A stretch of DNA of 64,000 nucleotides from an uncultured Nitrososphaerota archaeon (GTDB lineage Archaea > Thermoproteota > Nitrososphaeria > Nitrososphaerales > Nitrosopumilaceae): positions 736,001 through 800,000 of the forward strand of contig OY969559.1 in the NCBI GenBank assembly GCA_963701075.1. The letters are read 5' to 3'. The notes under the pieces were generated by a model. That model was not told where the DNA came from. It did not search any database and was given only the letters and a program-made list of their open reading frames with translations. Position numbers and translations under genes: made by a program. The number at the start of each line of letters is the position of its first letter. The first letter of the stretch is position 1. This document shows, in pieces, positions 6,389-61,026 of the stretch.

Positions 6389-7256
6389 TTACTGTGAGGT
6401 ATAGTTCTTTAACTTGCCTGTCAGTGCAACTGCTTGGGCATGAGCTTTTTGAAGTGTCTGGTTCTTTGTTTCTTCAGTCAGATAACCTGATTCAGTAGCA
6501 AGTGACTTGGCATGCTGTGCAGCCCTTGCAAGAATTGCATTGACATTTTCCTTTGTAACGTAACCTATCTCAATGGATAATGACATTGCTTCCTGGTGTG
6601 CTTTTGCAAATGCTTCCCTGTATTTTTCTACGTCAATTAATAGCTCTTCTTGGCTGTATACTGTATTTTCCTCCATTGCTGCGTTTAGAATTATTCCTGC
6701 CTCGACAGGTTTGACATCAAGCTTGCTAAGGAGGGTTGCAAGTTTTGCAGAAATCACATCACCTTTCTTTGCAGCAGTAGAATCTTTAGTTATCCAGACT
6801 GTTCCTTGATCAATCTTTGTAGTAACACCGGCCTCCTTAAAATCAGTAAGGATTGGACCTGGAGTTATTCCGGTATTGCCTGCCTTTATTACCACATCTA
6901 TGCTTGCTTTGTCTCCACCTCTAGCTGCTAGCATTATCTTGTTTTTTCCAAGCAGAATGTTTAGTTTGTGTGGACTCATGTTTGTGAACATTAAAACACA
7001 TTGACCAACTAGCTTGTCAGCTCAGCTTTTCAATAGAAGGCATCTTCAGCACGGCAAGTGCTTTTTGCGCTACCTTGTCTTTAATACTAATAATCTCAAC
7101 GTCGTTTTTGAATTTCTTTCTTAATGGCAATAACTGGGAAGATCTAACCTTTTCCATTCGTACTAGTGCAATTACTTTGTATTTCTTTGGAAGTTCTTGG
7201 ACCTGTTGATACATCTGTGTTTTCTTTTGAGGATATTTTGTTCTATTTTGGTGCAT
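6389..7256 (-). CDS. rplP0: 50S ribosomal protein L10 (P0), apparent frameshift near 7023
   Basis: Two ORFs (7017-7256, 6389-6991) join as IEKLADKLVGQCVLMFTNMSP if one base is removed; TGITPGP motif. Confidence 0.93.
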
Positions 7257-7257
7257 C

Positions 7258-7905
7258 TTACTTTGTTCCCACCTGTGGTTTGATTACTTTACCCATTGTA
7301 GTTTTCACCATCACTTTCTTGATGTTCCTGTCACCGCTTGGAAGTTTTTTCTCAATGGTACTGATTACTGCATTTGCATTAGCAGCTAAATCGTCATCTG
7401 CCATGGATTCATCACCTATCTTACATGCTAATGAAAGAGAATTTCTCAGTCTTACTCTAATTGAAGATCTGAATCTTTCCAATATTGCATCTATGGGTGC
7501 ATTGAATGGAACTGGAGTGGGCATTTTTCCTCTGGGGCCCATGAATTGACCTAATGTCTTACCAACATTAGCCATGAGTTGAGTATCTGCAAGAAAGAAA
7601 TCATAGCCATTAATCAGCTTGCGCGATTCTCTCTTATTCGTACCAATTTGTGTCAGTTGTGTTCCGTCTACAACCTTGTCAGCATTTTTAGCTTTTAGTC
7701 CAAGATCGCCTGAAGCAATCACACATACCGATGATGGCTGGTTTAATTTTTTGGGTAACTGGACTGTCTCATTAATGGCAAATCCCTTCTTAACATCAAT
7801 ATCTTTGAAAACCATGATTAGTTCTAGCGATTGTTTGAATTTTCTCTCCTTCTGGTTCTTTTTAGCTTCAACTATCATCTGTGTTATCTGGGACTCGTTG
7901 ATCAT
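7258..7905 (-). CDS. rpl1: 50S ribosomal protein L1
   Basis: RKFKQSLELI, MGPRGKMP, KTTMG. Confidence 0.96.
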   Translation of the reverse strand: MINESQITQMIVEAKKNQKERKFKQSLELIMVFKDIDVKKGFAINETVQLPKKLNQPSSVCVIASGDLGLKAKNADKVVDGTQLTQIGTNKRESRKLINGYDFFLADTQLMANVGKTLGQFMGPRGKMPTPVPFNAPIDAILERFRSSIRVRLRNSLSLACKIGDESMADDDLAANANAVISTIEKKLPSGDRNIKKVMVKTTMGKVIKPQVGTK

Positions 7906-8071
7906 TACGAAAGGGCTTTCTGAATGCCTATTTAAAATCGTTTAGTGACAGAATTCTTCGGGAATGGCCCATGTCTAAAAATTTCATTTTATGGAATTTA
8001 AGTTGTAAGAACATCAGATTTCGACAATAGAACCTACATTTATTAAATAGTAACAAAAAGTAGTCGCAAAC

Positions 8072-8530
8072 TTGCACAAATTTGATGAACTAGACATGAA
8101 AATAATTACCGAACTTGCTAGAGACGGTAATATTTCTGTACCAAACCTTTCAAAAAAATTAGGAATAAACACATCTGTACTGTATAGTAGAATCAAAAGA
8201 CTCATCAAAAAGAAACTGATAAAGAAGTTTACAATAGTAGTAGATGAATCCCTCATAGGGATTGGTGTAAGAGCGACAATGGGAATCAACAGAGATCCAA
8301 AGTTAAAGGATCAGATTCACAAATCACTCATGAAAACACCCGAAGTTATAGAGATATCCGAAGTTACAGGTAGGTTCGATATTCTGATTACTCTAAGGGC
8401 GACAAACTTAGAAGAATTACATACTGTGGCAATTGAAAAAATTGGAAAGATAGAAGGAATACAAAATACCGAAACTTTTGTAGAACTTCAGAGGACGGAC
8501 AAAGATTCTGTATATTCTATGACTGAATAG
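8072..8530 (+). CDS. Lrp/AsnC family transcriptional regulator
   Basis: DELDMKIITEL HTH, VTGRFD RAM-domain motif. Confidence 0.92.
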   Translation: MHKFDELDMKIITELARDGNISVPNLSKKLGINTSVLYSRIKRLIKKKLIKKFTIVVDESLIGIGVRATMGINRDPKLKDQIHKSLMKTPEVIEISEVTGRFDILITLRATNLEELHTVAIEKIGKIEGIQNTETFVELQRTDKDSVYSMTE

Positions 8531-8531
8531 T

Positions 8532-9014
8532 TTACTTGAATTTCTCTTCCCACTTGCCTGCATCAATTTCTGCAGTTACTTCTTTGGGGTTCTTTCCATC
8601 TACCTTTATTCCAAGTGATAAGCATGTTCCTATGACTTCTTTTGCAGCAGCTTTGAAGTCTATAGCATAAGAGGAATCGATTTTTAATTTTGCAACCTTT
8701 ACTGCAGAATCTATGGTAATATCTCCAACCCATGTGGCACCGGATGTTCCTGATCCTTTTTGAAGGCCAGCTTCTTTCAAAATTAGAGCAGATGCAGAAG
8801 GAATTCCTACCTCGACTGACCATTGTTTGCTCTTTTTATCTACAGTGACAGTAACTGGAACCTTCATTCCTTCGAAATCCTTTGTTTTTTCGTTGATTGC
8901 AGTAACTATCTGTAAAATGTTTACACCCAGTGGTCCTAAAGTAGGTCCAAGTGGAGGGCCAGCGCTTGCTTGGCCGCCTGTTACAAGTGCAGAAACAGTT
9001 TGAATATCTGCCAT
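8532..9014 (-). CDS. rpl11: 50S ribosomal protein L11
   Basis: ASAGPPLGPTLGPLG, GTCLSLG. Confidence 0.96.
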   Translation of the reverse strand: MADIQTVSALVTGGQASAGPPLGPTLGPLGVNILQIVTAINEKTKDFEGMKVPVTVTVDKKSKQWSVEVGIPSASALILKEAGLQKGSGTSGATWVGDITIDSAVKVAKLKIDSSYAIDFKAAAKEVIGTCLSLGIKVDGKNPKEVTAEIDAGKWEEKFK

Positions 9015-9051
9015 GATTTCTTTTCCCTCTTTACTGTAAATTTAATCCTTG

Positions 9052-16209: not shown

Positions 16210-16632
16210 ATGAGTGAAGAGCAAGCTCAGACTCTGTTGCAACAATTACAAGCGCTTGAAGGATACTTGGCAGATTTGATGCAGAAAGAAGAATCTGTAA
16301 TGAGACTTTTACAAGAAGCAGTAAGCGCTATAGAATCAATGAAAACAATAGGTGCTGATACATCTCATGAAGCCCTTGTGCCTGTAGGTATGGGGGCTTT
16401 TGTAAAAGCGACAATAGAACCGAACCAAAAAATAATTGTCAATATAGGAGCAGGAGCTTCAATTGAACAAGACAAGGATTCAGCAATTAACTATATGGAA
16501 TCTAGGATTAAAGAATTGGAAATTGTACTTCAACAATTGGCAGCTCAGAGACAAGAAGTATCCTTTAGACTTGAACAAGGTCAACAGGAAATGAACAAAC
16601 TTATACAATCAAGTCGCGGTTCTACGCAGTAA
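16210..16632 (+). CDS. pfdA: Prefoldin alpha subunit
   Basis: Coiled coils flanking LVPVGMGAFV / IVNIGAG hairpins; precedes ftsY. Confidence 0.92.
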   Translation: MSEEQAQTLLQQLQALEGYLADLMQKEESVMRLLQEAVSAIESMKTIGADTSHEALVPVGMGAFVKATIEPNQKIIVNIGAGASIEQDKDSAINYMESRIKELEIVLQQLAAQRQEVSFRLEQGQQEMNKLIQSSRGSTQ

Positions 16633-16643: not shown

Positions 16644-18169
16644 ATGTTTGATAAACTACGAAACGCGTTTTCTTCAGCAGTCAAAAGCTTTGGAGAAAAA
16701 GAACTAAAGGAAAAAGATGTCGATGAGGTTCTGTTTGAACTTGAGATAGACTTTGTTAGAATCTGATGTGGCAACAGAAGTAATAGATTTACTAAAATCT
16801 GATTTGAAAAAACGAGCTAATTGGCACTACAGTACAAAAAGATACAATAGCAGAATTTGTGAAACAAAATCTGAGGCAAAGTATTTCAAACATGTTTGAC
16901 GCAGCGGGAAAAATTGACATCTTATCTAATATACAAATGAAGAAGGAAAAGGGAGAACCATACATTATTTCATTCATGGGAATCAATGGAACGGGAAAAA
17001 CTACTACTATAGCGAAATTTGCTAATCTTTTACGCGAAAATAAATTGTCATCTGTAATTGCAGCAGCAGATACATACAGAGCAGGAGCAATTGAACAGAT
17101 AAGCGAACATGGTAAGCGATTAAACATAAAGGTCATCGCACAGAATTATGGCTCTGATCCTGCCGCAGTTTCGCGTGACGCTGTACTATATGCCAAATCT
17201 CACAAGGTAGATTGCGTATTAATCGATACTGCAGGAAGGATGCAGACAAGCAAGAACCTTATGGATCAAATATCAAAAATCAACAAAGTAGTAAACCCAG
17301 ATCTGAAATTATTCGTTGGTGATTCATTGGCAGGAAATGATACAGTCAGCCAAGCAAGAGAATTTCATAATTATACCAAATTTGACGGAGCGATTCTTAC
17401 CAAAAGCGATGCAGATGCACGTGGAGGTGCAGCTATATCTATAGTAAAAATAACATCAAGCCCAATTCTCTACTTGGGAGTCGGTCAAGAATACAAAGAC
17501 TTGAAACCATTTAACAAGGATTCATTTTTAGAATCCTTGTTTGGACCTCAAGAATCGTTGCCTATGATGCAAACCCTGCAGAAAGAGAAACCTCAACAAC
17601 AAACAGAACAAAAAGAAATTATTGTTGAAGAAAAGGTAAATGTGGTAAACAAACAACAAGAACCCAAAGTTGAGATTAAAGCGATAAAACCAGAAATTGT
17701 ACAAACAAAATCAGCGCCATCTGTGGAAAAAATTCAAATCAGCGCTGAAAAAGAAATTACACCTGAACAAGAATCATCCAAAAAATCGTTCAAATTCTTT
17801 GGAGACCAAAAACCTGAACCAAAAGTGGAATCAAAACCTGAACCAGAGATCAAACAAGAAATAAAGAAAGAGGTAGAGATGAAACCAACAGAAGAAATTT
17901 CAAATGAAGACGAAGATCCTTTTACGGGGGTAACAACAAAGGATATTGAAAAATATTCTGCATTATTTGATGTTCCTCCACCTGAAAGTGATGACGAGGC
18001 AAGAAAACTTGCCTCTAAAATACGAAAATGGATTTCTGACGGTAGACCAAAACCCACAAAAGATAAAGATGTTATTGAAGAGAAAACCAGTGAAAAAGAA
18101 GATGCTGAGATATCTAAAGATGAAAAGTCAAAGAAGAAACGTTCCATGTTTGGATGGATGAAGAAATGA
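16644..18169 (+). CDS. ftsY: SRP receptor FtsY, two apparent frameshifts near 16750 and 16813
   Basis: Hand-read start MFDKLRNAFSSAVKS at 16644; GINGTGKTT, DTYRAGA, DTAGR, TKSD, GVGQ. Confidence 0.93.
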
Positions 18170-21139: not shown

Positions 21140-22569
21140 GCGAAGAAGAGGCACCAAAAGGTTTTCTTAGAACAATAATTTCAAAAGCCGAGACCTACAT
21201 TCCGCAGGTACCAAAACCCAAGAAAAAAATTCCTTTACATGTCCGTTTGATATGGTGTGGAATAGCTCTATTCATTTACATGATTATGGGGCAGACTCCA
21301 CTGTACGGAGCATCAACCCCTGCATTTGACTTTCTTGCCTTTGCAAGAGTAATTTTTGCATCCCAACAAGGAACCTTAGTAGAACTGGGAATTGGGCCTA
21401 TAGTAACAGCGGGACTTTTGATGCAGCTCTTAAAGGGTTCTGAAATATTTCATTTGGATTTCAAAAAGCCAGAGGATAGAGAGCTCTATCAAACAGCAAC
21501 AAAAATTGTAACGTATATTGTAATCATTGCAGAGTCTTCACTATATGGAATGGCTGTATATGGGCCAAGGCTTCCTAATCATGAGGTTGCCTTTATTTTA
21601 ATTGGACAACTCATCGGCGCATCAGTAATAATCATGCTATTGGATGAATTGGTTCAGAAAGGTTGGGGAATAGGAAGCGGAATTAGCTTATTCATTGCAG
21701 CAGGTGTCACTCAACAGATAATTTGGTCACTCATAAGTCCAATCCCTGCAGGTGACGGAGGGCCAGTAGGAGTCTTTGCAAATATCATTTATGCGGTTAT
21801 ACATAGCAACTTTAGTAACCTGCTATTCAGAGTAAACCAGCTGCCTAGCATTTTTAGTCTCTTCATTACGGCTGGAGTGTTACTAATTCTTGTATATACA
21901 CAAGGAATCAAGGTGGAAATTCCTATTGTATCGACCAAATACAGAGGATTTTCCGCTGTATATCCAATCAAGTTGATGTATGTTTCAAACATTCCTGTCA
22001 TCTTGGCATCTGCGCTCACTGCTAATGCTGTATTTATTGGCCAAATACTTTGGGCTAACTTTAATCCGAGAAATGCAAATCCGGTTCTGAATTTCTTAGG
22101 GATGTTCGATCCCACCTCTCCATCTACTCCAACAGGAGGTATACTTTACTATGTAACAGCTCCTCTTGGTCTTGATACTGTTGCACTGGATCCTACGCGA
22201 GTCTGTTCTGTACATCTTATTCATGGTGGGCATAGTTGTTCTCTTTGGAAGACTTTGGATTGAACTTGGAGGACTGTCTGCTAAGAGTGCTGCAAAGAAC
22301 TTGTTAGATGCAGATGTGCAAATACCGGGTTTTAGACGTTCTAATCAACCCGTAGAGGACTTGCTACAGAAATACATCCCATCTGTTACAATAATAGGTT
22401 CTATTATTCTTGGACTATTACTGGTATCTCAAATGTATTAGGAACCTTTGGCTCAGGGACAGGAATGCTACTTACAGTTGACATCTTGATTAACTATTAC
22501 AATCTACTGGTAAGAGAAAGAGTAGAAGAAGTAATGCCTGCCTTGGGTGCGTTGCTTGGTAGAAAGTAA
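21136..22569 (+). CDS. secY: Protein translocase subunit SecY, apparent frameshifts near 22202 and 22421
   Basis: ELGIGPIVTA, GWGIGSGISLFI, YPIKLMYVSNIP, QIPGFR, GSGTG; restored end MPALGALLGRK-TAA at 22569. Confidence 0.94.
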
Positions 22570-40569: not shown

Positions 40570-41283
40570 TTATTGTATTTACTAGTTCTTTTTCTCTTTC
40601 GACACGGCTTGGGGAGTCGACATCAATCCATGGACTCTTTCCTATGTCATAAGCACTAATCTTCCCTTCTTTTGATAGCGGTTGGAGAATATCATATGAG
40701 AGGTTCATCTCTTTTCTTTTAACTTTTTTTGATTTGATGATCTTCAGAATTTTTGAATTCAGTATATAGACACCAAGGCATTCGGCCATCTCGAGTTTTA
40801 TCGTTGGCTTTTCCCTAAATTCAACGACAATTCCATTTTCTACTATGGCATAACCCGTTTCTTCTTTTCTATATCTTCTGGTAGCTATTGTACTAAGGTG
40901 TTTTTTTCTCTATGGAATTGATACATGTTTTTGATATCAAGGGGCGTCAAGTTATCCACAAACCATAGCAGAAACTCTGAATTTTTTTCTAGAATCTTCT
41001 CTAAATGTACCAGATCTCCGCCAGTTCCACTCTGCGAGTCTTGAATGAATTTGAGTGGCTTTGTTGCTCTTTTGTAATTTTCAAAATACTTTTCTATTTG
41101 TTTGCCCAGGCCATCAAAATCTGCAAGAATGATTATCTCGTCTATGATCTTAAATGATGACAGATATTCCACGATGTGAGCAATTAGTGGTTTTCCCTGA
41201 ACTGGTATCATCGCCTTTGGCATATAGTCTGTAAAAGGCCTTCCACGTGTTCCACGTCCGCCGGCCAGAATTACAGCTTTCAA
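40556..41283 (-). CDS. Sugar-phosphate nucleotidyltransferase family, apparent frameshift near 40893
   Basis: ILAGGRGTRGRP..PKAM; restored middle EFREKP; C-terminal WIDVD. Confidence 0.85.
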
Positions 41284-43995: not shown

Positions 43996-44697
43996 TGGAC
44001 ATAAAAAGAAGATATGTCATACCAGGCGACGTCATTGTAACAGGACCATTAAGACCGGAGCAAAACGTATACCAAGAGGGCGACAGAATAATTTCAACTT
44101 GTGTAGGAATATCTGAAATTTTCGAGAATGCTGTAAGAGTAATTCCACTAACGGGTGTATATGTGCCAAAAACAAATGATTTGGTAATAGGAAAAGTAAT
44201 TGGAACTTCTCCACTGTCTTGGGAGTTTGACATTAATTCTTGTTTTATAGGCTTTTTACCCGCTCAGGATGTTTTTGGCAGAGACTATTCTCCAACCAAG
44301 GATGAATTAAAACAAAGATTGAACATTGGAGACTTGGTAGCTGCAAGAGTGGCAAATTTTGACAGATCACGAGATCCACTTTTGACAGTTCAAGACAGAG
44401 ATCTAGGTAAAATTGATTCTGGCGAGCTGAATCGAGATAACTCCAAGTAAAGTACCTCGGCTGATAGGTAAGAGAGGTTCAATGATCCAATCTATAGAAA
44501 TGGCAACAAAGGCAATTATAACAATAGGTCAAAATGGATGGATTGTGGTATCATGCGAGGATCCAGAGGGATTATTAAAGGCAATTGAGGCGGTAAAAAT
44601 GGTGGATGCCCTAGCGCATACGCCTAACTTGACTGAAAGAGTCAAATCTATGCTAGGAATACCAGAGGATGAAAATAATGACACAATTAATGAGTGA
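43992..44697 (+). CDS. rrp4: Exosome RNA-binding subunit Rrp4, apparent frameshift near 44429
   Basis: VIPGD, S1 domain, restored KVPRLIGKRGSMI KH motif, IGQNGWI. Confidence 0.93.
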
Positions 44698-46200: not shown

Positions 46201-46201
46201 T

Positions 46202-46669: not shown

Positions 46670-47060
46670 ATGTCCTCAGGAGAACAAATTCCACCGTGGT
46701 TGCAGGAACAAGTAGGTAGATTACAACAGTTACAACAAAACCTTCAATCAATCATGGCCCAAAAGCAACATCTTGAGGCAGAACAACATGAAACGGAAAG
46801 AGCTCTTGAGACGTTGGAGAAGACAGGCGATAATGACGCTGTGTACAAGGCGGCAGGTTCAATTCTTGTTAAATCGACAAAACCTCTTCTAGTTTCAGAA
46901 CTTGAGGAAAAAAAAGAACTTGCAAATACTCGCATAACTGTACTGACAAAGCAAGAAGCTTAGACTTAAGGAAAATCTCAAAGAATCGGAAACAAAAATC
47001 CGAGAAATGTTACATGGACCTGCAGCTCAGACTGGACCAAAGACAGATACTCCTAAATAA
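46670..47060 (+). CDS. pfdB: Prefoldin beta subunit, apparent frameshift near 46961
   Basis: VYKAAGSILVK; restored tail EARLKENLKESETKIREML...TAA at 47060. Confidence 0.92.
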
Positions 47061-49838: not shown

Positions 49839-49927
49839 TCAAGAATACTATTCTAATTTTACTTAAAAAGCATATGATGAGTATAAAATATTAAGCTCCT
49901 CATCTGTAACTTGATTAGAAAGACGCT

Positions 49928-50773
49928 ATGAGTTACGCACATCCTGAGGTTTTGACAGATACTGAGACAGTGGCAAAAAATCTAGGCAATAGCTCAATTA
50001 AGATTGTTGAAGTTGACTATGATCCAGAAAATGCCTACAGGCAGGGACACATTCAAAATGCCAGTTTAATTTGGTGGAAAAGAGACATCAATGATCCTGT
50101 GACGCGAGACATAGTTACCAAATCACAATTCGAAGAATTAATGTCAAGAAATGGAGTCACATCTGATTCCGAAGTAATTCTTTATGGTGATTTCAACAAC
50201 TGGTTTGCAGCTTTTGTTTTTTGGATATTCAAGTATTATGGGCATGAAAAAGTAAAGATCATGAATGGTGGTAGGAAAAAGTGGGAAATGGAGAAGAGGC
50301 CATATACAAAAGAAGAACCGCAGATTCAAAAAACAAAATATGTATCAAAACCGCCTAATGAAGGAATGAGAGCTTATCTGTTTGATGTGAGACGAGCCCT
50401 TGACAAAACAGATACCGTTCTAGTTGACGTACGCTCTCCCAAAGAATTCTCAGGAGAGATTACAGCTCCGCCAGAATATCCGATGGAACATGCTCAGAGA
50501 GGAGGCCACATTCCAGGTGCACACAATATTCCGTGGGCTACTGCTGTAAATGACACTGATGGTACTTTCAAAGCTGTTGATGAATTAAAGAAGAATTATG
50601 AACCTAAAGGAGTTACACCAGATAAAGATGTGATTTGCTACTGCAGAATAGGGGAGAGATCATCTCATTCATGGTTTGTCCTAAAGTATCTATTGGGATA
50701 TCCGCAAGTTAGGAACTATGATGGCTCTTGGACTGAATGGGGTAATATGATTGGAAACCCAATCGAAAAATAA
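49928..50773 (+). CDS. Thiosulfate sulfurtransferase (CysA/SseA-like rhodanese)
   Basis: GHIQNA, GHIPGA, active-site CRIGER, YDGSWTEW. Confidence 0.93.
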   Translation: MSYAHPEVLTDTETVAKNLGNSSIKIVEVDYDPENAYRQGHIQNASLIWWKRDINDPVTRDIVTKSQFEELMSRNGVTSDSEVILYGDFNNWFAAFVFWIFKYYGHEKVKIMNGGRKKWEMEKRPYTKEEPQIQKTKYVSKPPNEGMRAYLFDVRRALDKTDTVLVDVRSPKEFSGEITAPPEYPMEHAQRGGHIPGAHNIPWATAVNDTDGTFKAVDELKKNYEPKGVTPDKDVICYCRIGERSSHSWFVLKYLLGYPQVRNYDGSWTEWGNMIGNPIEK

Positions 50774-51083
50774 TGAGTTAGATCAGGAACTTCCTGTACT
50801 AAACAAAGGAATATTCTATGCCATAAGGGATGGTTCTACTGATCTCATCATGGAAGACAAAACCAAGCGAGGTCTTACAGTGCAAGAACAATCAATAGAT
50901 GAAAAATACAATGTAATTTCAGAAAAAGGGATGATCTATGATATGGATGGCATTGGACACAAAGTGGGCATACGGTGGTTCTTTCCTAAGGACAAGTATA
51001 CTTTTGAGAATGTATTGGAGCATGCCAAAGAGATGGAAGAAAGATACCGAAAGATCCGTGAAGAAACCTGCCCAGACTACTGA
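50751..51083 (+). CDS. Hypothetical protein overlapping the rhodanese stop
   Basis: 110 aa ORF ending ETCPDY. Confidence 0.72.
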   Translation: METQSKNNELDQELPVLNKGIFYAIRDGSTDLIMEDKTKRGLTVQEQSIDEKYNVISEKGMIYDMDGIGHKVGIRWFFPKDKYTFENVLEHAKEMEERYRKIREETCPDY

Positions 51084-51119
51084 GAAGAGTTTTTAAGGAC
51101 TTTTCTAATAATAGTTGGC

Positions 51120-52073
51120 ATGTCTCTTCTTCTAAAAGATAAAGTATACTCAGTTCAGTCTGCCACTACAAAGAGAGGAATTTATCCGCTGCATAACTAT
51201 AAACTGGGCCTTTATCGTCTGCCTGTAAAATTGGAAGACAAGTATGAAATAGATTCTATTGTTAGCGGTTTTAAGAAAATTTTTGCCATGGATCAATTCG
51301 CTGACAGAATTTATGCGACGTATCGCTGGAAAGAGGAGAACATGCCAGATCCAGATGAGCGTGGATACAAACAGATTGAGCTTGAAGTTCAAGTCGAAGT
51401 TATAACAGGAGAGGTAGTTGACATGATATACCAAATCTATCCAATTGAGAAATACGGTGACGGCCTGTGGGTAAAAGATTATCGAAGAAAGGCTGATACA
51501 AATGCTAAGATGATGATTGATACTATATTGCGTAATAGCATTCTTGCCGACAGGATGGTTGAACATATTGTAAAAACTAAACAAGTAGAACCGGAGATTG
51601 CTATCAAAGAACTGGAAGAAATGACACCGCTGGCACAGATAGTTCCAAATGCCAAGCCAAAACCAAAACCAGCTGCGCCTCCGCCTGGACAAGAGGCCAA
51701 ACCCGCCGAAGTTGAAACTCCATCTGGAGTAAAGCAGGGCCCAATAGACGTTGAATTCAAGTCAAAGCTCAAAGTAACTGAAACATTTACTGCTCCATCA
51801 AGCAGCAATAAGATCAAGATCTTCGGACCACGAAAAGGAAACGAAGTGTTAGGTATATGGGGCGAGTTTGTCTCAGTAGATTTTGATGTCTGTATAGGGG
51901 ATGGTGCATGTATTGATGCTTGTCCTGTCAAGGTCTACGAGTGGGCCGATTTCCCAGGAAACATATCATCTGAAAAGAAACCGCTGATGGCAAGAGAACC
52001 AGATTGCATATTCTGCCTGGCATGTGAGAATGTTTGCCCTGTTCAAGCAATCAAGATCTCAAAGAAGGGCTAG
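51120..52073 (+). CDS. Unknown N-terminal domain fused to a dicluster ferredoxin
   Basis: CIGDGACIDACP and CIFCLACENVCP; Pro-rich linker. Confidence 0.88.
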   Translation: MSLLLKDKVYSVQSATTKRGIYPLHNYKLGLYRLPVKLEDKYEIDSIVSGFKKIFAMDQFADRIYATYRWKEENMPDPDERGYKQIELEVQVEVITGEVVDMIYQIYPIEKYGDGLWVKDYRRKADTNAKMMIDTILRNSILADRMVEHIVKTKQVEPEIAIKELEEMTPLAQIVPNAKPKPKPAAPPPGQEAKPAEVETPSGVKQGPIDVEFKSKLKVTETFTAPSSSNKIKIFGPRKGNEVLGIWGEFVSVDFDVCIGDGACIDACPVKVYEWADFPGNISSEKKPLMAREPDCIFCLACENVCPVQAIKISKKG

Positions 52074-52120
52074 TAAAACAACGGTAAGGCTATAAGGACT
52101 TGTGAGTTGAAAGACTCCAA

Positions 52121-54148
52121 ATGCTGATACATACCCTGCCAACTCCTTTAACACAATTCCTATGGAATCTGTTCATCGGAATAGCCCTTGTAATAACTCT
52201 ATACACATGTAATTTCTATTACTTGGTTTTTTTGGCACGACAAAAAAAGAAGACAAAATCTATCGAGTTAAAAGAAACTCCAACCGTTACAATCCAGCTT
52301 CCAATTTATAATGAAAAATATGTTGCGGCTAGACTAGTAAATGCCGTCTGCGAACAAGATTACCCAAAAGAAAAATTGTGTATCCAAGTGCTAGATGATT
52401 CTGATGATGACACATTCAATATTCTAGAAGATCTAGTGGACGATTACAAAAAGAAAGGATTCGATATAACTCATGTGAGAAGAGGAAATAGAAAAGGGTA
52501 CAAGGCAGGAGCGCTCCGTCACGCAATGAGCTTTACAAAAGGAGACTTTGTTGCTATATTTGATGCAGACTTTATTCCACCTTCATGGTTTCTAAAAAAA
52601 GCACTCTCGTATTTTTGCAAGCCAGAGATAGGTCTGGTGCAATGTAGGTGGGGCCATGTTAATGAAAACTATTCAGCTTTAACGATGGCTCAGGCACTAA
52701 GCTTGGATTTTCATTTTCTCATAGAACAAAAGGCAAAAAGCAATTCCCATCTATTTATGAATTTCAATGGTACTGCTGGTGTATGGAGAAGAGAATGCAT
52801 TGAAGACTCTGGGGGATGGCATACTGCAACACTAGTAGAAGATCTAGATCTTAGTTATAGAGCCCAGATGAAAGGCTGGAAATGTGTATTCATACCTGAC
52901 ATTGTAGTAGATGCGGAGCTCCCTGTACAAATGAATGCAGCAAAGAGACAACAGTTCAGGTGGGCAAAGGGGTCAATTCAATGTGCCATAAAATTGCTGG
53001 GCGATGTTGCAATAAAGAGAATCCCAATTGAGACAAAAGTCCAAGCCTTTGTTCAACTTACAAGACACATATCGTTTCCATTAATGCTGATACAATTCTT
53101 AATTCTTCCAATATTGCTCGCCTCAAAAATAAATCTATACATAATCAGCGGACTGCCGGCCATTACAATAATGGTGTATCTTGCTATGGGGCCTCTGGTG
53201 TATATTATGATAATTCGTGACTTGTATCATGCAAGTTGGAAGTCAAAGGTACTTTCGTATTTTTACATGATCTTTTATTCTGCAGGTATGTCAGTGAACA
53301 ATACTATTGCTGTCTTTGATGCATTCTTTGGAAAGAAGAATGAATTTTTGCGTACTCCAAAGTTTGGAATAGTAAATAAGACTGATGATTGGAGGGACAA
53401 AGCTTATGCGCTGCCTTTTACCAAAACCACATTGCTTGAGATATTCTTTGGCGTATATGGAGTCATAGGAATATTTGTTGCGATCTTTTCAAACAATCCC
53501 ATTTTTGCTCCAATAATAGGAATTCAAGTTGTAGGATTTTTCTACATAGCATATCTTAGCATATCGCATTCAACATTTAAAAAAGGCAAATCAAGAAATA
53601 TACCTGTTACATCAGGTACTCAAAGGATGGCAAATACATACTACAAGCTTGCAATGGGCGGAATTATGGGACTCATAGCCTTAGGCGTAGTCATGGCTTT
53701 TGAGGAATATGGTACCACGATATACCCACTTGACCAAGCTAGAGGACTTTTATCAAGAGTTCAGGCCACATCTGATCCACAAACCATCCACGATGAGCTG
53801 AAAAATGTAATGATGCTTCTACCAAAATCAGGAAACCCTGTATGGATATTTCCTACCGAAGACACAGACTTTGGATTAATGCAAGGAGACCTACAGACTA
53901 TGTTGGGAACCGTAGATAAGGTTGGAAGCACATCTCCTGACAGTGCAGCATTTCATGCCGGAATGCTAAACATTCATGCGCAGGCCACGACAATTACATT
54001 CAACCTGCTTGATGCCACACCATACATGTATGTGAGCATATCCAACATTTTGTTTGGTTGCATATGGGTAGCTGTGATAATTGGAATATTTGCAATGTTG
54101 AAGAGAAAAAGAGAACGTCTGAGAGCCTACGACTTGGAAGAGGCCTAG
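52121..54148 (+). CDS. Processive GT2 glycosyltransferase (cellulose synthase-like)
   Basis: QLPIYNE, DDSDD, KAGAL, FDAD, VED, QQFRW, multiple TMs. Confidence 0.92.
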   Translation: MLIHTLPTPLTQFLWNLFIGIALVITLYTCNFYYLVFLARQKKKTKSIELKETPTVTIQLPIYNEKYVAARLVNAVCEQDYPKEKLCIQVLDDSDDDTFNILEDLVDDYKKKGFDITHVRRGNRKGYKAGALRHAMSFTKGDFVAIFDADFIPPSWFLKKALSYFCKPEIGLVQCRWGHVNENYSALTMAQALSLDFHFLIEQKAKSNSHLFMNFNGTAGVWRRECIEDSGGWHTATLVEDLDLSYRAQMKGWKCVFIPDIVVDAELPVQMNAAKRQQFRWAKGSIQCAIKLLGDVAIKRIPIETKVQAFVQLTRHISFPLMLIQFLILPILLASKINLYIISGLPAITIMVYLAMGPLVYIMIIRDLYHASWKSKVLSYFYMIFYSAGMSVNNTIAVFDAFFGKKNEFLRTPKFGIVNKTDDWRDKAYALPFTKTTLLEIFFGVYGVIGIFVAIFSNNPIFAPIIGIQVVGFFYIAYLSISHSTFKKGKSRNIPVTSGTQRMANTYYKLAMGGIMGLIALGVVMAFEEYGTTIYPLDQARGLLSRVQATSDPQTIHDELKNVMMLLPKSGNPVWIFPTEDTDFGLMQGDLQTMLGTVDKVGSTSPDSAAFHAGMLNIHAQATTITFNLLDATPYMYVSISNILFGCIWVAVIIGIFAMLKRKRERLRAYDLEEA

Positions 54149-55479
54149 GAAATATTTAGTTCGTGTCTTACTTCGTCAACTGCTCTAATTCCAAATAGAT
54201 CGCGAATTTGTTCCATTCTAATTGACTCCTTGACCAGATCAGCTCCTCACTCACTTATCAAAAGTCTAAAGACATCTGTGAATCTAATTTCCCACCTGTC
54301 TGAACAATCCATAATCTTTGATATGCTCCACTGTTTTACTTCAAGAGGAAGTGGCATCTTTGATTCCACTTCAATGGAGAGTCTGTCAAATAGATTTACC
54401 ATGTCTACAGTTTGAGCTACCATTTTTTGTATGTCTTCTAACGTGCCATATTTTGACTCTGATCTCATGCGTATATTGGACTGAAACTCAGAAAGGCGTA
54501 GCAATCCCATAACTTCGCTTGAGGTGCTCTGCGAGGTCTTGTGGGTTACATCTCTAATCTCATTTAATTGCTGAGAGATCTCGTATGTCTTTTTATTGAA
54601 TTCAGATATGGACGATGAGTTTCTATTGAGCAGTTCTGCAAAGTCTGACATTTTCTCTTCCAGATCCTTTGTTTTGCCTAGCACATTGTCCTTGAAATTG
54701 CTAAATTCGGCGTTTACGTTTCTAATGTCATTGCCTAGCACATCAAGAGAATCTGTTTTCTTTATCAATGAGTTAATCTCTGTACTAACATTTCTAATCT
54801 GAGAATCAAGACCAAAGATTGGCTCTGTCTTTGTGACAATTCTATCAATTTCAGTTTTGATGTTTGATATGCTTTCTTCAAGATGTGCCATTTTTCCGGT
54901 TTTTTCGGAGATTTCCTTCGTGCTCTTCTTTACTTCCTCAATTTCAGAGCCAATGTTTGATAATGACTCTGCCCTGCTTGTCACGCTCTTTATTTCTTCA
55001 CGTATCTTCTCCGTCTTTTCTGATACATGCATTATCATCTTGGTATTATTTCTAATAGAGTCTAGATTGTCTGCTAGATTCTGCATGAGCTTGCCGGTAT
55101 CAGGAATGCTCTCTTGTTTTTGGTGAATCTTGCTAACTTGATCCTGAAGGCGATTTATCTGATCATTGATTTTCTCTATAAGGTTTGAATGTGCTTTTAC
55201 CTGGCTCATTCCGTGGAAGAGTCTTTGTGTATCTTCTTCAATGATGGTTATCTGTCTTGAACTTTTTTGAATCTGATCTAGTGAAGAATTAACTCCATCT
55301 ATCATGCTTTTTAATGAAATCAGTATTTTCTGATTTTCAGTGAAAATTTTGGACATTGTCTTTACTTCTGACGCCAAAACTTTGGTTGCCTCAGAAATTG
55401 AGCTCATCTTCTTGAGCACATCTGCAGTATGATCTTTGGTTCCCCCCTTGCTATTCTCAGTTTTTTTTGCTTGCTTCAC
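54145..55479 (-). CDS. Long coiled-coil protein; in-frame TGA at 54247-54249 is probably an error
   Basis: Heptad-rich 410 aa ORF; the same frame continues GADLVKESIRMEQIRDLFGIRAVDEVRHELNIS to TAG at 54145. Confidence 0.8.
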
Positions 55480-55547
55480 TTTAAATTACAATAACCATAG
55501 CCGATAAAAAAGTTCGGTTTTAATTTTCTTCAAAAAATAGCCAAGAA

Positions 55548-55655
55548 TTAGTTGTTGACTAACTCTGGGTCATGTAGTACCTCGTGCAAGGTCTTCTCTA
55601 CTAAGCCATTTGCAGTCTCAAAGAACTGCCTTGGACAGAATTCGCAATTTAGCAT
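55548..55655 (-). CDS. 35-aa C2H2-type zinc-finger microprotein
   Basis: Hand translation MLNCEFCPRQFFETANGLVEKTLHEVLHDPELVNN (CxxCxxxF...HxxxH). Confidence 0.65.
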   Translation of the reverse strand: MLNCEFCPRQFFETANGLVEKTLHEVLHDPELVNN

Positions 55656-55659
55656 ATCT

Positions 55660-55710
55660 TACCGTACCATACGGTACTATTAACATAAAGGTAATTTTGG
55701 TATTACCAAA
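55660..55710. promoter_or_regulatory. Two palindromes flanking the putative TATA region of the zinc-finger microprotein gene
   Basis: TACCGTA-cca-TACGGTA (55660-55676) and TTTGGTA-t-TACCAAA (55696-55710). Confidence 0.4.
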
Positions 55711-55718
55711 GGTAGGTT

Positions 55719-56093
55719 TTACTTTTTTTGAAGTTTAAGCGATGCCGAGTTTATGCAATATCGTAACCCGGTAGGCGCAGGCCCGTCATCAAAAACATGT
55801 CCTAGATGAGAACCACATTTTTTACACATGACCTCAGTCCTGCTCATGCCATAACTGGTATCAGTCTCCACTTGCGTATTGCCTGATATTGTCTCCCAAA
55901 AACTCGGCCACCCTGTACCTGAATCAAATTTTGTCTCAGAACTGAATAACTCTGCTTCACAACAAACGCATTGGTACACTCCACTGTCTTTGCAATTGTT
56001 GTATGTGCCAGAAAAGGGCGGCTCTGTGCCTTTCATTCTGCAAATAAAGTACTGATCTTGTGTTAGCTTCTTTTTCCATTCATCTTCTGACAT
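55719..56093 (-). CDS. msrB: Peptide methionine-R-sulfoxide reductase
   Basis: [32 protein letters not shown]. Confidence 0.96.
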
Positions 56094-56214
56094 TTCTGAT
56101 AACAAATTATATCTTTTTTTGAATATTAATCTTTTAAAGTGATTCGTGAACAATTTATTAGGTTATATCTAATTCTCAAGTTTTAAATTATGATATCTGG
56201 CATGTTTTCTCGTT

Positions 56215-57124
56215 ATGCAACGAGATTTACAATTAACAGTAAGAATGGTAATTAGTTTTCTTGCACTCACGCTAATCTACCTCGTATTTTTGAGCTTTAT
56301 TGCCATGTACTTTGGATTGGGCATTCTTCCAATTGCAATAATTGCCGGATTGATGATCGGGGCACAATGGTACTTTTCTGATAGGATAGTTCTCTGGAGC
56401 ACGGGAACTAGGCTTGTAACTAGGGAAGAATATCCAGTTTTACACGAAATAGTAGAAAGGTTAGCGCAAAAGGCAAATCTTCCAATGCCTAGGGTTGGAG
56501 TTATGTCAAGCGATGTTCCAAATGCATTTGCTACAGGCAAGGGTCCCAAGAGACTCTGTAGTGGTTGTAAGTTTGGGAATAATGAGAATTCTGGACAAGG
56601 AGGAACTTGAGGGTGTCTTATCGCATGAACTCACTCACATAAAACACAGAGATGTTACAATCATCACCCTTGCAAGTTTGTTCTCTACTATTGCTTGGTA
56701 TCTTATGCAATCTTCCATGTTCAGCTCAATGTGGGGCGGTTCAGGATATGGGGGAAGACAACAGCAAGGGGGGAACCTCTTTTTGGTCATTATTGTAGCT
56801 GCAGTAGTATGGCTCCTAAGTTTCCTAGTGATCAGAGCCATATCTAGATACAGGGAATTTGCTGCAGACAGAGGCGGGGCTCTACTTACGGGCCAACCAA
56901 TGAATCTATCTCGTGCGTTGATGAAGATAGAAGGAAGAGTAAAAGTGGCTCCAAAACAGGGACTTCAAAAGATGGAAGGAATGAATGCATTTTTTATCGT
57001 ACCTGTGATATCAGGCCAGACGATTGCAAGGTTTTTCTCTACGCATCCTCCATTAGAGGAACGCATCAAGCGCTTAATGGAAATTGAACGACAACTTCGT
57101 GACTCTGACCAACTAGGCATCTAG
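56215..57124 (+). CDS. htpX: Zinc metalloprotease HtpX, apparent frameshift near 56553
   Basis: PNAFATG, HELTH, SRYREFAAD, STHPP. Confidence 0.94.
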
Positions 57125-57153
57125 TAAGTTCTATGCACGAATATCTTCAGAAA

Positions 57154-57213
57154 GCAGTCAGATACCCCAGGTATAATTCATCATATAATCAGTAAACCCA
57201 ATCATCATTCTGC
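57154..57213 (-). ncRNA. Box C/D methylation guide sRNA
   Basis: Minus strand reads GCAG-A-ATGATGA(C)-TTGGGTTTA-CTGA(D')-TTAT-ATGATGA(C')-ATTATACCTGGGGTAT-CTGA(D)-CTGC: four consensus boxes, 4-bp terminal stem, intergenic. Confidence 0.85.
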
Positions 57214-57235
57214 AAACCACTGTTATCTGAACGCG

Positions 57236-57243
57236 CTTTATAA
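57236..57243 (-). promoter_or_regulatory. Putative TATA box of the C/D sRNA
   Basis: TTATAAAG on minus strand, 23-30 nt upstream of the sRNA 5' stem. Confidence 0.55.
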
Positions 57244-57359
57244 CGTGACCGATTTCTAAATGAGATATCCTTAATTTTATTTATAGGCGAATACGTAGAA
57301 GGTAAGAATTTTTCACCAAATAGTTGGTCTAGACTACGTTGGGTATTAAATAAAATTTC

Positions 57360-57947
57360 ATGAGAGTTTTGCCTATGACTGAAGAAATTCTAAACAGAAT
57401 CGAGTCTGCAGGAATAGACGGCATTAAAAAGGCTGACCTCAAAAAAGCATTCGGTAAAGAATGCGACGACATACTTGAGAAGCTAAGGCAAAAAGAGAAA
57501 GTTTTCATCGAGAAAAAGGGGGTTGCCTATTTTGTCTGGACTAGAGACAATTACATTTTACATCTAACAGAAAATGATACGAAATTCAAACTCATGCTCA
57601 ATATGGTAATAGGCGTAAGCCATTCTGTTGCAAGGCTAAAAGAGCACACTCAGAACCTCAGAGAAGACATGGAAAGAATCTCTCTACAAGAAAATTTGCC
57701 GCAAAATGTTGATTTTGAGAACATATTCAACAAGTGTATCAGTGAGACAGGCACCTCCATAGGCTGGACCCCATTCTCAAAGGTAAGGGAAAAAGTATGT
57801 GAGACACAGAATCTATCAAAAGAAAAATTCTATTCGCTTGCAAGTGATCTAGTTGAGAGGCACCGTGAGAGATATGAAGTCTCGTCTGGAGGCCAAGAAG
57901 GCATTATCATTCGTGGAATGGTTCATGGTTATGTGAGGAATGTCTAA
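57360..57947 (+). CDS. Hypothetical protein, likely wHTH - coiled coil - wHTH
   Basis: N-terminal GIKKADLKKAF...KKGVAYFVW helix/wing pattern, helical linker, C-terminal helix/wing pattern; fold is inference. Confidence 0.75.
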   Translation: MRVLPMTEEILNRIESAGIDGIKKADLKKAFGKECDDILEKLRQKEKVFIEKKGVAYFVWTRDNYILHLTENDTKFKLMLNMVIGVSHSVARLKEHTQNLREDMERISLQENLPQNVDFENIFNKCISETGTSIGWTPFSKVREKVCETQNLSKEKFYSLASDLVERHRERYEVSSGGQEGIIIRGMVHGYVRNV

Positions 57948-59551
57948 TGTATGCATATGGATTAGAAAACAACCCATATCCCAGTAGCCCAACGCCCACT
58001 GAAAAAGATGCAAAGATACTTGGAGGGAAGAGACACAAAGAAGCAAAATCTGCCATAGTTGAATGTATGAAAGAACTAAATGGCAAAGTGCAAGGAAGAG
58101 ATTCTGCCGATAATGACTTTAGAGTAATAACGGTAATCCAAGATGTAGGCTCTGGAAAGACCCACTTGGCACTACACATAAAAAATTTAAAGGGACACTA
58201 TAACGCAGAGTGTTCTTTTGTTGATCTATCTACCATATCACCTAAGACCATGTCAAGCATCTACAATGCAATAATCAAAGGATTTGATAATGATTTTTTT
58301 GTTCAATTGCGAACAAAATTCTTGGCATACATACGAGAGAGAGCAGAACAAGGTGACAATTCTGCAAAGAAAGCCATCAACTATACTGTGATAAATAGGC
58401 TAACGGGATTGACAATTAAAGAAAAGGTAGATGACATCATATCTGGAAAAGAACATGTTTCTGATGAAAATCTAAAGCAATTCCTCACTCAGAGATTCAA
58501 TTATCACGAGTCTGCATTGATAAGAAGTGTTGTAACAAACTCCTTTGAAAACATACAAAATCTCGAGGAGTTGCTTGGCATGATCTCGGCCATATCGAAA
58601 TTTGCCCATATGTTTTTGGGAAAAATTACACTTCTTGAGATAGATGAGTTTGACGGAAATAAAGACTCGATAGAATTTGTAAAGGGGATGATAAACTCTC
58701 ACATTCCTGCATGCACACTGCTTTTAATTTCAACTCCATCAGGATATGCAGAGGTACAGAACACCAATCCATCTGTTTTTGATAGACTTGAGAAGGCAAA
58801 CTATAAGATTGATCTGGTAGGCTCTAACTCTAAAGATGAACTTGCAGAAATTGCCGTTGAATACATAAAACACAACGACAAACACGGCAAGCTTGGCTCA
58901 AAGACAGAGGAAGAACTAGTCGATAAAATCCAAGCACTTTACGAGGAGTTTCCAGAATTTAGAAGTGTTAGATCTGTTATCAACATATTGTACCATGCAA
59001 TGGAAAAATCAGAAGAGTCAGGTCTTGATAAAATTGATGAAAATGTGATTGATGATGCTATAAAGCAAACGTATCCGGGACTCAAAGTACGAGGAAGCAT
59101 AATGGACGTGCCTATATCTGATTTTATTGCAATAAGAAAAATTTGCAACGAATCATCTTCAGAAAAAGATCTCAAAGAGGCAGTGCACAACTTGGCAAAT
59201 CTTGTACATGAGATGGGAGGTATATGTAAACTCGAAAAACAGAATCTGGCTCTAGATGCCGTGTATCAGGATTCGTTTGGAGCAAAGGTAGGGGTAGCCA
59301 TAATGACAAACTTGAACAATGCCGACAGTTTAGACCGAATCTCTAACATATCAAAATCAGCAGTTGTGGATAAATTAATAATCTTGACTAGCCAAAAGAT
59401 CCAGAGTCCTTACAACGCAACAGTGGTAAATGTAGACAAGTCAAAGATGATTGATTTGATTTACTTTAACAACAAGTATAATGGTAAGAAAATTGCTGAA
59501 TCTGACAACGAACGAGCAGAGATATTGGCAAAAACTCTGTGTATAATCTAG
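57947..59551 (+). CDS. Uncharacterised AAA+/P-loop ATPase (BrxD/DUF2791-like) with extra C-terminal domain
   Basis: YGLENNPY start, Walker A QDVGSGKT, Walker B LLEIDEFD, candidate Arg finger DRL; TAATG overlap with upstream gene. Confidence 0.8.
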   Translation: MYAYGLENNPYPSSPTPTEKDAKILGGKRHKEAKSAIVECMKELNGKVQGRDSADNDFRVITVIQDVGSGKTHLALHIKNLKGHYNAECSFVDLSTISPKTMSSIYNAIIKGFDNDFFVQLRTKFLAYIRERAEQGDNSAKKAINYTVINRLTGLTIKEKVDDIISGKEHVSDENLKQFLTQRFNYHESALIRSVVTNSFENIQNLEELLGMISAISKFAHMFLGKITLLEIDEFDGNKDSIEFVKGMINSHIPACTLLLISTPSGYAEVQNTNPSVFDRLEKANYKIDLVGSNSKDELAEIAVEYIKHNDKHGKLGSKTEEELVDKIQALYEEFPEFRSVRSVINILYHAMEKSEESGLDKIDENVIDDAIKQTYPGLKVRGSIMDVPISDFIAIRKICNESSSEKDLKEAVHNLANLVHEMGGICKLEKQNLALDAVYQDSFGAKVGVAIMTNLNNADSLDRISNISKSAVVDKLIILTSQKIQSPYNATVVNVDKSKMIDLIYFNNKYNGKKIAESDNERAEILAKTLCII

Positions 59552-59599
59552 ACCTCCTGTGTGTATATTTTTAAAATAAGGCCCGTCAATCTCTAGCAT

Positions 59600-60019
59600 A
59601 TGGCAGAGCGGGAGCTGGAAGAACTTTTGGCCCAACGACACAAGGATGTCACGCTTTATGATTTTGAAGGCAAAAAGGTACCATGTATCATAATGGAAGA
59701 GAAAAGATTTGATGATATAATGAGGGCCATAGCTGGAAAACCCATCTCGGTTGAAACCAATCTTAACATACTGCAGGATGGCCTGGGTCATGTTTTTGTC
59801 AAAATGACATTACACTTTTCACAAGAAATTGAAGAAAAGGTATTGCTGTATGCAAACGAGTCTTTAGAGTTTTTTGAGGCTTTGACTGAAACCTCTATGT
59901 TGGCCCTCTCCTCTCCTCGTTCAGAATATGGTCGCTCTAATGTGTTTATGATACAACTTCCTAAACCGGAAAAAACAGCAGACGCTTTAGAAATAATCAA
60001 AAAAGGTCTTAAGATGTAA
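59600..60019 (+). CDS. Hypothetical protein
   Basis: 139 aa ORF with TTTTAAA about 25 nt upstream. Confidence 0.75.
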   Translation: MAERELEELLAQRHKDVTLYDFEGKKVPCIIMEEKRFDDIMRAIAGKPISVETNLNILQDGLGHVFVKMTLHFSQEIEEKVLLYANESLEFFEALTETSMLALSSPRSEYGRSNVFMIQLPKPEKTADALEIIKKGLKM

Positions 60020-60020
60020 A

Positions 60021-60094
60021 TGCGGTTGCCGGGATTTGAACCCGGGTCGCGGAATTGGCAATCCCGCATATTAACCAAGCTGTACTACAACCGC
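60021..60094 (-). tRNA. tRNA-Gly(GCC)
   Basis: GCGGTTG/CAACCGC acceptor stem, anticodon loop TT-GCC-AA, GTTCAAATC. Confidence 0.95.
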
Positions 60095-60245
60095 TTGATC
60101 GATTTAGAAATTTCGAGTCTATTAAAAGGTACGGCTCAAGTTTATGGCTTATAACATTTCAAATAGGTCCTGCCTAGTTTGGCAGAATCAAGAATATACT
60201 GTTTGGAAACATAATTTTTTAACATCTGGATACCAAAGGAATACT

Positions 60246-60521
60246 GTGAATTCTCAACTTGAAGAAAAAGTGAACCAAAAAATAAAAGAAGTAACTGGAA
60301 AATCAGACGAAATCTTCAAGATAATAAATTCACTAGACAAGCTCAGGACACATTCCGACTCTTTTGCCTATGGGATTGCTATAGGCAGATTGTACAATTC
60401 ATTTTATTACCAATGCAGAAGAATACTCAAGCGCAATCCTACCGATGAAGAGTTTTCAGAATTCCTTGAAATGCTTAGCAAAAAACAAAAAGAAATTCTT
60501 GACGCGCTAAGACTTGACTAG
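60246..60521 (+). CDS. Hypothetical small helical protein; start uncertain
   Basis: GRLYNSFYYQCRRILKRNPT; likely GTG start at 60246 inside ORF 60144-60521. Confidence 0.68.
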   Translation: MNSQLEEKVNQKIKEVTGKSDEIFKIINSLDKLRTHSDSFAYGIAIGRLYNSFYYQCRRILKRNPTDEEFSEFLEMLSKKQKEILDALRLD

Positions 60522-61026
60522 AGCCGGCTTTAAAGAAATCACTTTGATTGATGGAGTTATTGGTAATTTTACAGCCGCGTTATGCATTGACTTTTTTGCT
60601 ACCTCAAGATGCTCTTTTTTGACAAATGCTTCCATGAGTACCTGACCTCTATTGATACGAGCAGCCAAACTGACCGCCTTGCCAAAAGCCCCTCTCATTC
60701 CTTCCTGAAGTCTGTCTGCACCTGCAGTGGCAATCATCTTGTTCTCTCTTAGCAATATGTGAGGATAGATTCTAAGACTAGAGAAATATCCAGTTTCTCC
60801 TGCTACCGTTTCAATGCCTTTATTTGCAGCCAATCTTGCTGATTCAATTGCCATGTGTCTTATCTGTATTTTTTCTTTGGAACACAGACTGAACACAATA
60901 ATCATAATCTCCATCTCTTTTTCCCCCGCCGGAAAACTTGGCAATTTTTATCTGAGGTTTACCCTTGATGAACTCTTTCCTTGTATAGGGTTGACCATTG
61001 CCAGTTCGGTAATTTGCTCCGTGCAT
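60507..61026 (-). CDS. rpl10e: 50S ribosomal protein L10e (uL16), apparent frameshift near 60888
   Basis: MHGANYR..YTRKEFI; QIRHMAIESAR; GADRLQEGMRGAFGK. Confidence 0.94.

Follow-up and report, generated by a model that had tools for sequence, protein, structure and literature searches.

AGCT-specific consensus errors break intact genes in a single-contig Nitrosotalea genome and point to probable methylation of this motif

Examining a 64,000-nt stretch (hereafter the window; positions 736001–800000 of contig C1) of the single-contig genome of an ammonia-oxidising archaeon (genome G000; 1,915,938 bp, G+C 38.6%), we found that the lesions interrupting 13 of its genes are consensus errors of the deposited sequence, that these errors are specific to the tetranucleotide AGCT, and that the broken genes are actually intact. 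The errors are probably those of a consensus computed from native-DNA long reads, caused by N4-methylcytosine (m4C) deposited at AGCT by a putative orphan methyltransferase of 288 amino acids (aa), a reading in which the sequencing platform, the mark and the enzyme are inferred. They belong to a known class of artefact. The methylation that most likely produces them is likewise of a kind known from archaea, although our limited literature search turned up no earlier report of it for this genus. The finding is therefore a quality warning for this genome, not new biology, and it does not overturn current knowledge.

The genome encodes an archaeal AmoA which, together with the name Nitrosotalea given by depositors to close homologues, places the source organism in this genus of acid-soil ammonia-oxidising archaea (AOA). 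As comparison material we used a sister genome of the same genus (G006; 310 contigs, 84% complete), 14 pieces of which were aligned with gaps to the window, yielding 51 gap events in all at a DNA identity of 94–96% in the lesion-carrying pieces and 91–92% over the last 2 kb. At 30117 and 40893, where G006 has no coverage, two other relatives were used instead, namely G001 (83% identical) and G008 (80% identical). Public metagenome runs were searched with window 39001–49000, and contigs of four runs were then compared with the window over positions 39001–59000. The runs holding the window sequence are labelled as soil and peat metagenomes; X1, X2 and X3 belong to one study, X1 being possibly the source sample, and X5 belongs to a second study. 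The loose ends of the run contigs carry what we take to be the Nextera transposase adapter, indicating that they derive from short-read libraries.

All seven lesions previously noted within window 39001–59000 are corrected in the contigs of X1, X2 and X3, and the run of the second study corrects the three of three that it covers (39265, 54248/9 and 56553), as well as position 51196. Relative to the window, the contigs omit one base at 39265, 44429, 46960, 49700 and 56553, add a G behind 40892 and differ by substitution at 54248 (C>A), 54249, 44440 and 51196 (A>G each). In X1, these six gaps and four other letters account for all 10 differing letters, every one of them in AGCT, and apart from the lesion sites the contigs of X1–X3 are letter-identical to the window over stretches of up to 13 kb. 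This match everywhere but at the AGCT lesions shows the lesions to be consensus errors. The genes that they seem to break are intact, their frames being restored by G006 and by the run contigs alike, as the original prediction had concluded from the letters of the window alone. Counting 68 AGCT as assembled and five destroyed by errors, this part of the window holds 73 true sites, nine of which (12%) are wrong. Its 81 GATC sites all agree with the run contigs, as does every other position. The substitutions at 44440 and 51196, each read as AACT in the window and AGCT in the run contigs, were missing from the earlier list of errors, which thus holds for its 15 frame lesions and was incomplete beyond them. 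Both leave the frame unbroken and are consequently invisible to frame-based checks; on the opposite strand they read AGTT, T having replaced the cytosine presumed to carry the methyl group.

The lesions could in principle be real, being pseudogenes or the mark of a variant strain with mutating AGCT sites that was caught by the long-read assembly. They are after all present in the deposited sequence, and contigs drop rare variants, so that a minority variant could be missed. We nevertheless regard this as extremely improbable: three samples of one study and one of another restore every lesion tested within otherwise identical sequence, no viable cell could have lost the function of all 13 genes affected within 54 kb, among them the essential secY, ftsY, cbf5 and two ribosomal protein genes, and the excess of insertions over deletions presented below is limited to coding sequence, non-coding indels being balanced.

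The original prediction listed 15 lesions in 13 genes at or near AGCT, all 15 of which are present at, or within 2 nt of, the places it gave, in agreement with G006, G001 and the run contigs (Table 1). Thirteen of them are visible against G006, as 12 gaps of 1 nt, each isolated and located at or within AGCT (7023, 16748, 16814, 22202, 22421, 24869, 39265, 44429, 46961, 49700, 56553 and 60888) and one double substitution at 54248, where G006 has TAGCTC and the window TCACTC, i.e. GAGTGA on the minus strand, matching the earlier reconstruction. At 16748 and 22202, AGCT is a reading of AGACT and AGTCT, since G006 itself has GGCT and AGCC there. Pfam searches bore out the gene identities, with families divided over the halves of broken open reading frames (ORFs): L10/P0, SRP54-type GTPase, SecY, TruB/PUA (Cbf5), POR, the aconitase family (LeuC), NTP transferase, Rrp4, prefoldin, NAD kinase, M48 peptidase and L16/L10e. 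Within the window, 13 clusters of gaps shift the frame of G006 ORFs of at least 120 codons, 12 of them at AGCT and the thirteenth intergenic, and the other gaps against G006 lie between ORFs or at ORF ends when read against the ORF list. The claim that every lesion sits at AGCT is hence sustained in the window; genome-wide it applies to most lesions, not to all. The thirteenth cluster, an A3 for A4 at window position 16635, was considered as an additional lesion and rejected as intergenic by reading: ORF 16210..16632 stops 3 nt ahead of it, and the ftsY start comes after it.

Enrichment at AGCT was measured beyond the window by aligning 60 further G006 contigs, taken by number and unselected, together with the 14 window pieces, to the whole of G000 (74 contigs or pieces; 351,100 aligned bases, of which long G006 ORFs account for 275,012). 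Alignments were produced by blastn with costlier gaps, gaps within 30 nt were clustered, and an event was called coding when it caused a net frameshift inside a G006 ORF of at least 120 codons; a megablast alignment had given 186 coding frameshift events, 37 of them at AGCT, but included many spurious paired gaps and was replaced by this procedure. The sample contains 328 gap clusters and 268 net frameshifts, 204 outside and 64 inside long ORFs. Single 1-nt events make up 57 of the 64 coding clusters, with 48 insertions and nine deletions in G000, against 60 insertions and 62 deletions among the non-coding ones (n = 122). Of the 48 coding insertions, 32 have AGCT no more than 1 nt away from the repaired junction, where 1.01 would be expected from 200,000 random positions (binomial p = 3e-42), which excludes chance. 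The next-ranked 4-mers overlap the AGCT context (GCTA, GAGC, CAGC), and no palindromic 4-mer that does not overlap it was strongly enriched among the 48 insertions. Overall, roughly two thirds to three quarters of the coding frameshifts genome-wide are located at AGCT.

The inserted base follows a small number of patterns: AGCT[G], [C]AGCT and AG[T]CT (seven each), AG[A]CT (five), [G]AGCT (four), and AGCT[T] and AG[G]CT (one each). All seven [C]AGCT insertions are preceded by T and all seven AGCT[G] insertions are followed by A, therefore representing one event viewed on two strands. Examined by eye, the 16 remaining coding insertions comprise seven AGACT, AGTCT, CAGCT or AGCTT where G006 has a single-nucleotide polymorphism in the motif, three GA[A]TC (G000:1410219, 1410818 and 1796180, all outside the window) and six unexplained cases. 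AGCT-type insertions are also found outside ORFs (10 of 60). Two other measures were discarded. A looser test, asking whether AGCT can be made within 3 nt, accepts 49 of the 64 coding clusters, but the median for other 4-mers is 17 of 64, and it was dropped as unspecific. The asymmetry of substitutions at AGCT relative to G006 is small (34 against 32 in the window, 282 against 248 in the 351-kb sample, and 116 against 94 for AACT and AGTT together), too near the background of 5% real divergence, and substitution errors are therefore revealed by the run contigs alone.

The fixed contexts, the insertion bias and the survival into the consensus show that the errors are systematic, like nanopore errors at methylation motifs. 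Errors intrinsic to the chemistry, or to the consensus handling of unmodified k-mers around AGCT, would require no modification at all, and both the strong flank dependence (T before [C]AGCT, A after AGCT[G]) and the share of about 12% of sites are what a pure k-mer artefact could give. We consider this unlikely. To our knowledge, AGCT does not figure among the generic error contexts of nanopore sequencing, and other palindromic 4-mers outside the AGCT context lack strong enrichment. Moreover, GATC, the second motif published for AOA, is in weak excess (4 of 48 coding insertions against 1.28 expected, p = 0.04), the three GA[A]TC insertions hinting that it too leaves a weak trace, and a Dam-family enzyme is present in the genome. 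The sole strongly enriched motif is, in addition, the very one at which m4C has been measured in other AOA (PMC6329791, PMC8919816).

AOA methylation at AGCT and GATC is reportedly also treated by Ahlgren (2017). In a Nitrosoarchaeum metagenome-assembled genome (MAG) from Lake Biwa, AGCT was reported as m4C at 96.0% and GATC as N6-methyladenine (m6A) at 98.2% of sites, its two enzymes being most similar to M.Mma5219II (AGCT, m4C) and M.AvaVI (GATC), and the same two motifs were noted for Nitrosomarinus catalina (PMC6329791). Two of two marine Thaumarchaeota MAGs had 82–91% of AGCT modified (PMC8919816), and the pair of AGCT m4C and GATC m6A is tabulated for strains BD3, SPOT01 and MY3 (PMC11033074). 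The present genome resembles these orphan systems (M.NspBD3I/II, M.Nca01I/II, M.TarMY3I/II; PMC6329791, PMC11033074) in the phylum-level group, in the AGCT motif and in combining an enzyme of the N4/N6 family with a Dam-type enzyme, and possibly in having no restriction enzyme beside the N4/N6 one. It differs from them in the genus, Nitrosotalea, and in that methylation is here deduced from the error footprint and the genes; no methylome paper on Nitrosotalea turned up in our limited literature search.

Motif-specific consensus errors are also well preceded on the sequencing side. Wick, Judd and Holt (2019) found in their nanopore assembly benchmark that Dcm motifs accounted for about 70% of the errors in the consensus, and that these disappeared after training on the methylated taxon (PMC6591954). 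Later papers also deal with errors induced by methylation. Like these errors of Enterobacteriaceae assemblies (CCWGG, 5-methylcytosine (m5C)), the errors reported here are concentrated in one short motif and systematic, thus surviving long-read consensus, the Dcm ones being cured by short reads or by a methylation-trained model (PMC6591954). Unlike them, they affect AGCT, with m4C as the presumed mark, are mostly 1-nt insertions with strict flanks, and come from a platform that is itself deduced. A motif-specific error trace has likewise been used to reveal the motif in the detection of modifications from nanopore read errors (Genome Res 2024, PMC11610603), which relies on reads and strand-specific mismatches, unlike the finished consensus, broken genes and short-read contig comparison exploited here.

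Searching the genome for the enzyme, as had been suggested along with the proposal that it is encoded outside the window, revealed one DNA methyltransferase of family PF01555, with AGCT as its putative specificity (288 aa, G000:910512-911378, 140 bits over the whole profile). Its sequence contains TSPPY at residues 28–32 followed by DPFTGSG at residues 222–228, an order of motif IV before motif I that defines the beta class. The SPPY motif goes with N4-cytosine methyltransferases. The nearest solved structures are a putative modification methylase (2zie), then the cytosine-N4 methyltransferases 8s9m and 8s9n, and one homologue carries the depositor name 'similar to N4-cytosine methylase'. NCBIfam gave only sub-threshold CcrM-like matches, to the C-terminal part. 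All 10 additional Nitrosotalea genomes that were searched have the protein, at 78–96% identity. Among the best 80 of 134 related loci, mostly from Nitrosotalea, Nitrosopumilaceae or Thaumarchaeota MAGs, with some Nitrososphaerales and one Cenarchaeum, none came from the strains with characterised AGCT enzymes. ORFs within about 1.4 kb of the gene are small, none of them nuclease-sized; by reading, one is Alba-like and one zinc-finger-like (98 aa). This enzyme is the candidate that likely makes the AGCT mark. A second PF01555 match (G000:343832-344224) was rejected as a DNA methylase, being a THUMP/UPF0020 RNA methyltransferase, and the C5 methylase profile PF00145 had no match in the single contig (94.96% complete), control genomes giving matches. 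One Dam-family enzyme, predicted to be of the GATC m6A type, is encoded at G000:14478-15212 (PF02086, 212 bits; TIGR00571, 282.9 bits against a cut-off of 114.85). Its gene (285 aa) adjoins archaeal amoA (216 aa; Pfam Archaeal_AmoA, 349 bits), and an ORF for a 120-aa membrane protein comes next (G000:12978-16712).

From these elements, the following sequence of events can be proposed. The conserved, putatively orphan beta-class methyltransferase with SPPY as motif IV would place m4C on both strands of every AGCT. The assembly was probably made from native-DNA long reads, most likely nanopore, without short-read polishing, as suggested by the single 1.9-Mb contig and its mismatch to short-read contigs. 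A base-caller or consensus model untrained on the mark would then misread a minority of AGCT sites, about one in eight here, depending on context, turning TAGCT into TCAGCT (equivalently AGCTA into AGCTGA) and AGCT into AGACT or AGTCT, and more rarely losing the G or reading AACT or AGTT. Being systematic, such misreading would win the consensus and generate the false frameshifts and the one false stop.

In the source organism, AGCT is most likely modified as m4C, considering the published AOA cases, the absence of a C5 methylase match and the type of the enzyme. A modification of AGCT other than m4C, such as m5C like that set by the AluI methylase or a further mark in the form of a backbone change or hypermodified base, appears quite improbable. 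The chemical type is not readable from an error footprint, insertion-type errors are unusual, and an AGCT m5C enzyme is tabulated for the archaeon Methanocella conradii (PMC11033074). Conversely, PF00145 found no match, the sole PF01555 DNA methylase has SPPY, with N4-cytosine enzymes as its nearest named solved relatives, and in three of three measured AOA cases the mark is m4C (PMC11033074, PMC6329791). It is also very improbable, but conceivable, that the AGCT mark is other or bulkier than plain m4C, or is m4C patterned from site to site, which would explain the gained base (TAGCT to TCAGCT, AGCT to AGACT) at about one in eight AGCT; the failing sites would in that case map epigenome heterogeneity.

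Several observations weigh against errors due to m4C set by the 288-aa enzyme. The errors strike no more than about 12% of AGCT sites, and context explains the choice of sites only in part. Methylation-linked nanopore errors are mostly substitutions in the published accounts considered here, whereas insertions dominate in this genome. Fifteen of the 64 coding frameshift clusters have no AGCT link even under the loose test, several of them being short A or T runs or 2-nt repeats; they may reflect true divergence, or else mistakes, possibly of another kind, in either G000 or G006. Homologues of the enzyme (E ≤ 1e-20) occur in just 51 of 121 genomes of the family, G000 included, and need not share a lineage with the published AOA enzymes (these genus and family tallies include the unpublished G011 and G071, on neither of which anything depends). 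Finally, X1, X2 and X3 represent a single study, and X1 possibly the source sample itself.

With 5,719 AGCT sites in the genome, the rate of 9 in 73 scales to about 700 errors of all kinds genome-wide, while the rate in the G006 sample gives about 250–300 indels, for an overall total of perhaps 300–800 AGCT errors. A public single-contig reference for an acid-soil ammonia oxidiser carries false pseudogenes in core genes such as secY, ftsY, ribosomal protein genes, leuC and NAD kinase. The errors also depress its completeness score, 94.96% against 97–99% in the five sister genomes that are most complete and in the fewest fragments (G002, G004, G008, G009 and G011), and would mislead analyses of pangenomes, pseudogenes and selection, calling for polishing with the existing short reads. 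At the same time, they provide a first, indirect sign that AGCT methylation, and perhaps that of GATC, extends from marine, freshwater and soil relatives to Nitrosotalea, name a candidate enzyme, and illustrate that a modification motif is readable from a finished consensus alone.

Table 1. Errors at AGCT in the window, by window position, with the affected gene and the sequences or domains bearing on each.
Lesion	Window position	Gene, strand	Comparison
Extra C between AGCT 7019–7022 and AGCT 7024–7027	7023	rplP0, -	G006 has AGCT-AGCT; Pfam L10 and L10P insert domain over two ORFs
AGACT for AGCT (extra A)	16748..16752	ftsY, +	1-nt gap against G006, which has GGCT
Extra G ahead of AGCT 16815–16818	16814	ftsY, +	Not in G006; SRP54 GTPase domain downstream
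AGTCT for AGCT (extra T)	22200..22204	secY, +	G006 is 1 nt shorter here and has AGCC; SecY profile divided at about 206/202
ACT for AGCT (G lost)	22420..22422	secY, +	G006 has TTAGCTGG
Extra G behind AGCT 24865–24868	24869	cbf5, +	Not in G006; TruB_N and TruB_C/PUA on different ORFs
Extra G behind AGCT 30113–30116	30117	2-oxoacid:ferredoxin oxidoreductase alpha, +	Covered by G001 only (83% identity), with a 1-nt gap at this spot; weakest of the 15
Extra C ahead of AGCT 39266–39269	39265	leuC, +	Omitted in X1, X2, X3 and X5 contigs and G006; aconitase profile split 234/232
ACT for AGCT (G lost between 40892 and 40893)	40892..40893	nucleotidyltransferase, -	X1–X3 contigs add G behind 40892; G008 (80%) has a gap at 40889–40893
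Extra G behind AGCT 44425–44428	44429	rrp4, +	Omitted in X1–X3 and G006
AACT for AGCT, frame kept	44439..44442 (substitution at 44440)		A>G in X1–X3; G006 has AGCT
Extra T behind AGCT 46957–46960	46960..46961	prefoldin beta, +	Omitted in X1–X3 and G006; reading as a T-run slip also possible
Extra C ahead of AGCT 49701–49704	49700	NAD kinase, -	Omitted in X1–X3 and G006
AACT for AGCT	51195..51198 (substitution at 51196)		A>G in X1, X2, X3 and X5
CA for AG of AGCT, giving TGA	54248..54249	410-aa gene without Pfam family, -	C>A and A>G in X1, X2, X3 and X5; G006 has TAGCTC
AGACT for AGCT (extra A at 56553)	56551..56555	htpX-like M48 peptidase, +	Omitted in X1, X2, X3, X5 and G006; M48 profile split at position 46
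AGACT for AGCT (extra A at 60888)	60886..60890	rpl10e, -	1-nt gap against G006; L16/L10e domain

Other differences and features were encountered along the genome. A 16-nt stretch of G006 is absent at window position 57126, right after the htpX-like gene; the run contigs match the window there, and the absence is therefore a real strain difference. At G000:938514, a 5-nt tandem duplication (TACTT TACTT) relative to G006, in a 149-codon G006 ORF and with no AGCT link, may be a real difference, or the ORF may be spurious. The overlapping ORFs 1..2037 and 1997..4702 of the window, considered as a possible frameshift, are two separate genes, of LeuRS type and AlaRS. Between two minus-strand genes, window 28166–28812 comprises 650 bp without a long ORF and with three 1-nt indels relative to G006 (28284, 28345 and 28547), none of them at AGCT; a small gene or an RNA may be located there. 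Lastly, a 97-nt tRNA match on the plus strand (window 25870–25966) scores 39.6 bits, against 60–61 for the other two, as expected of an intron-containing archaeal tRNA.

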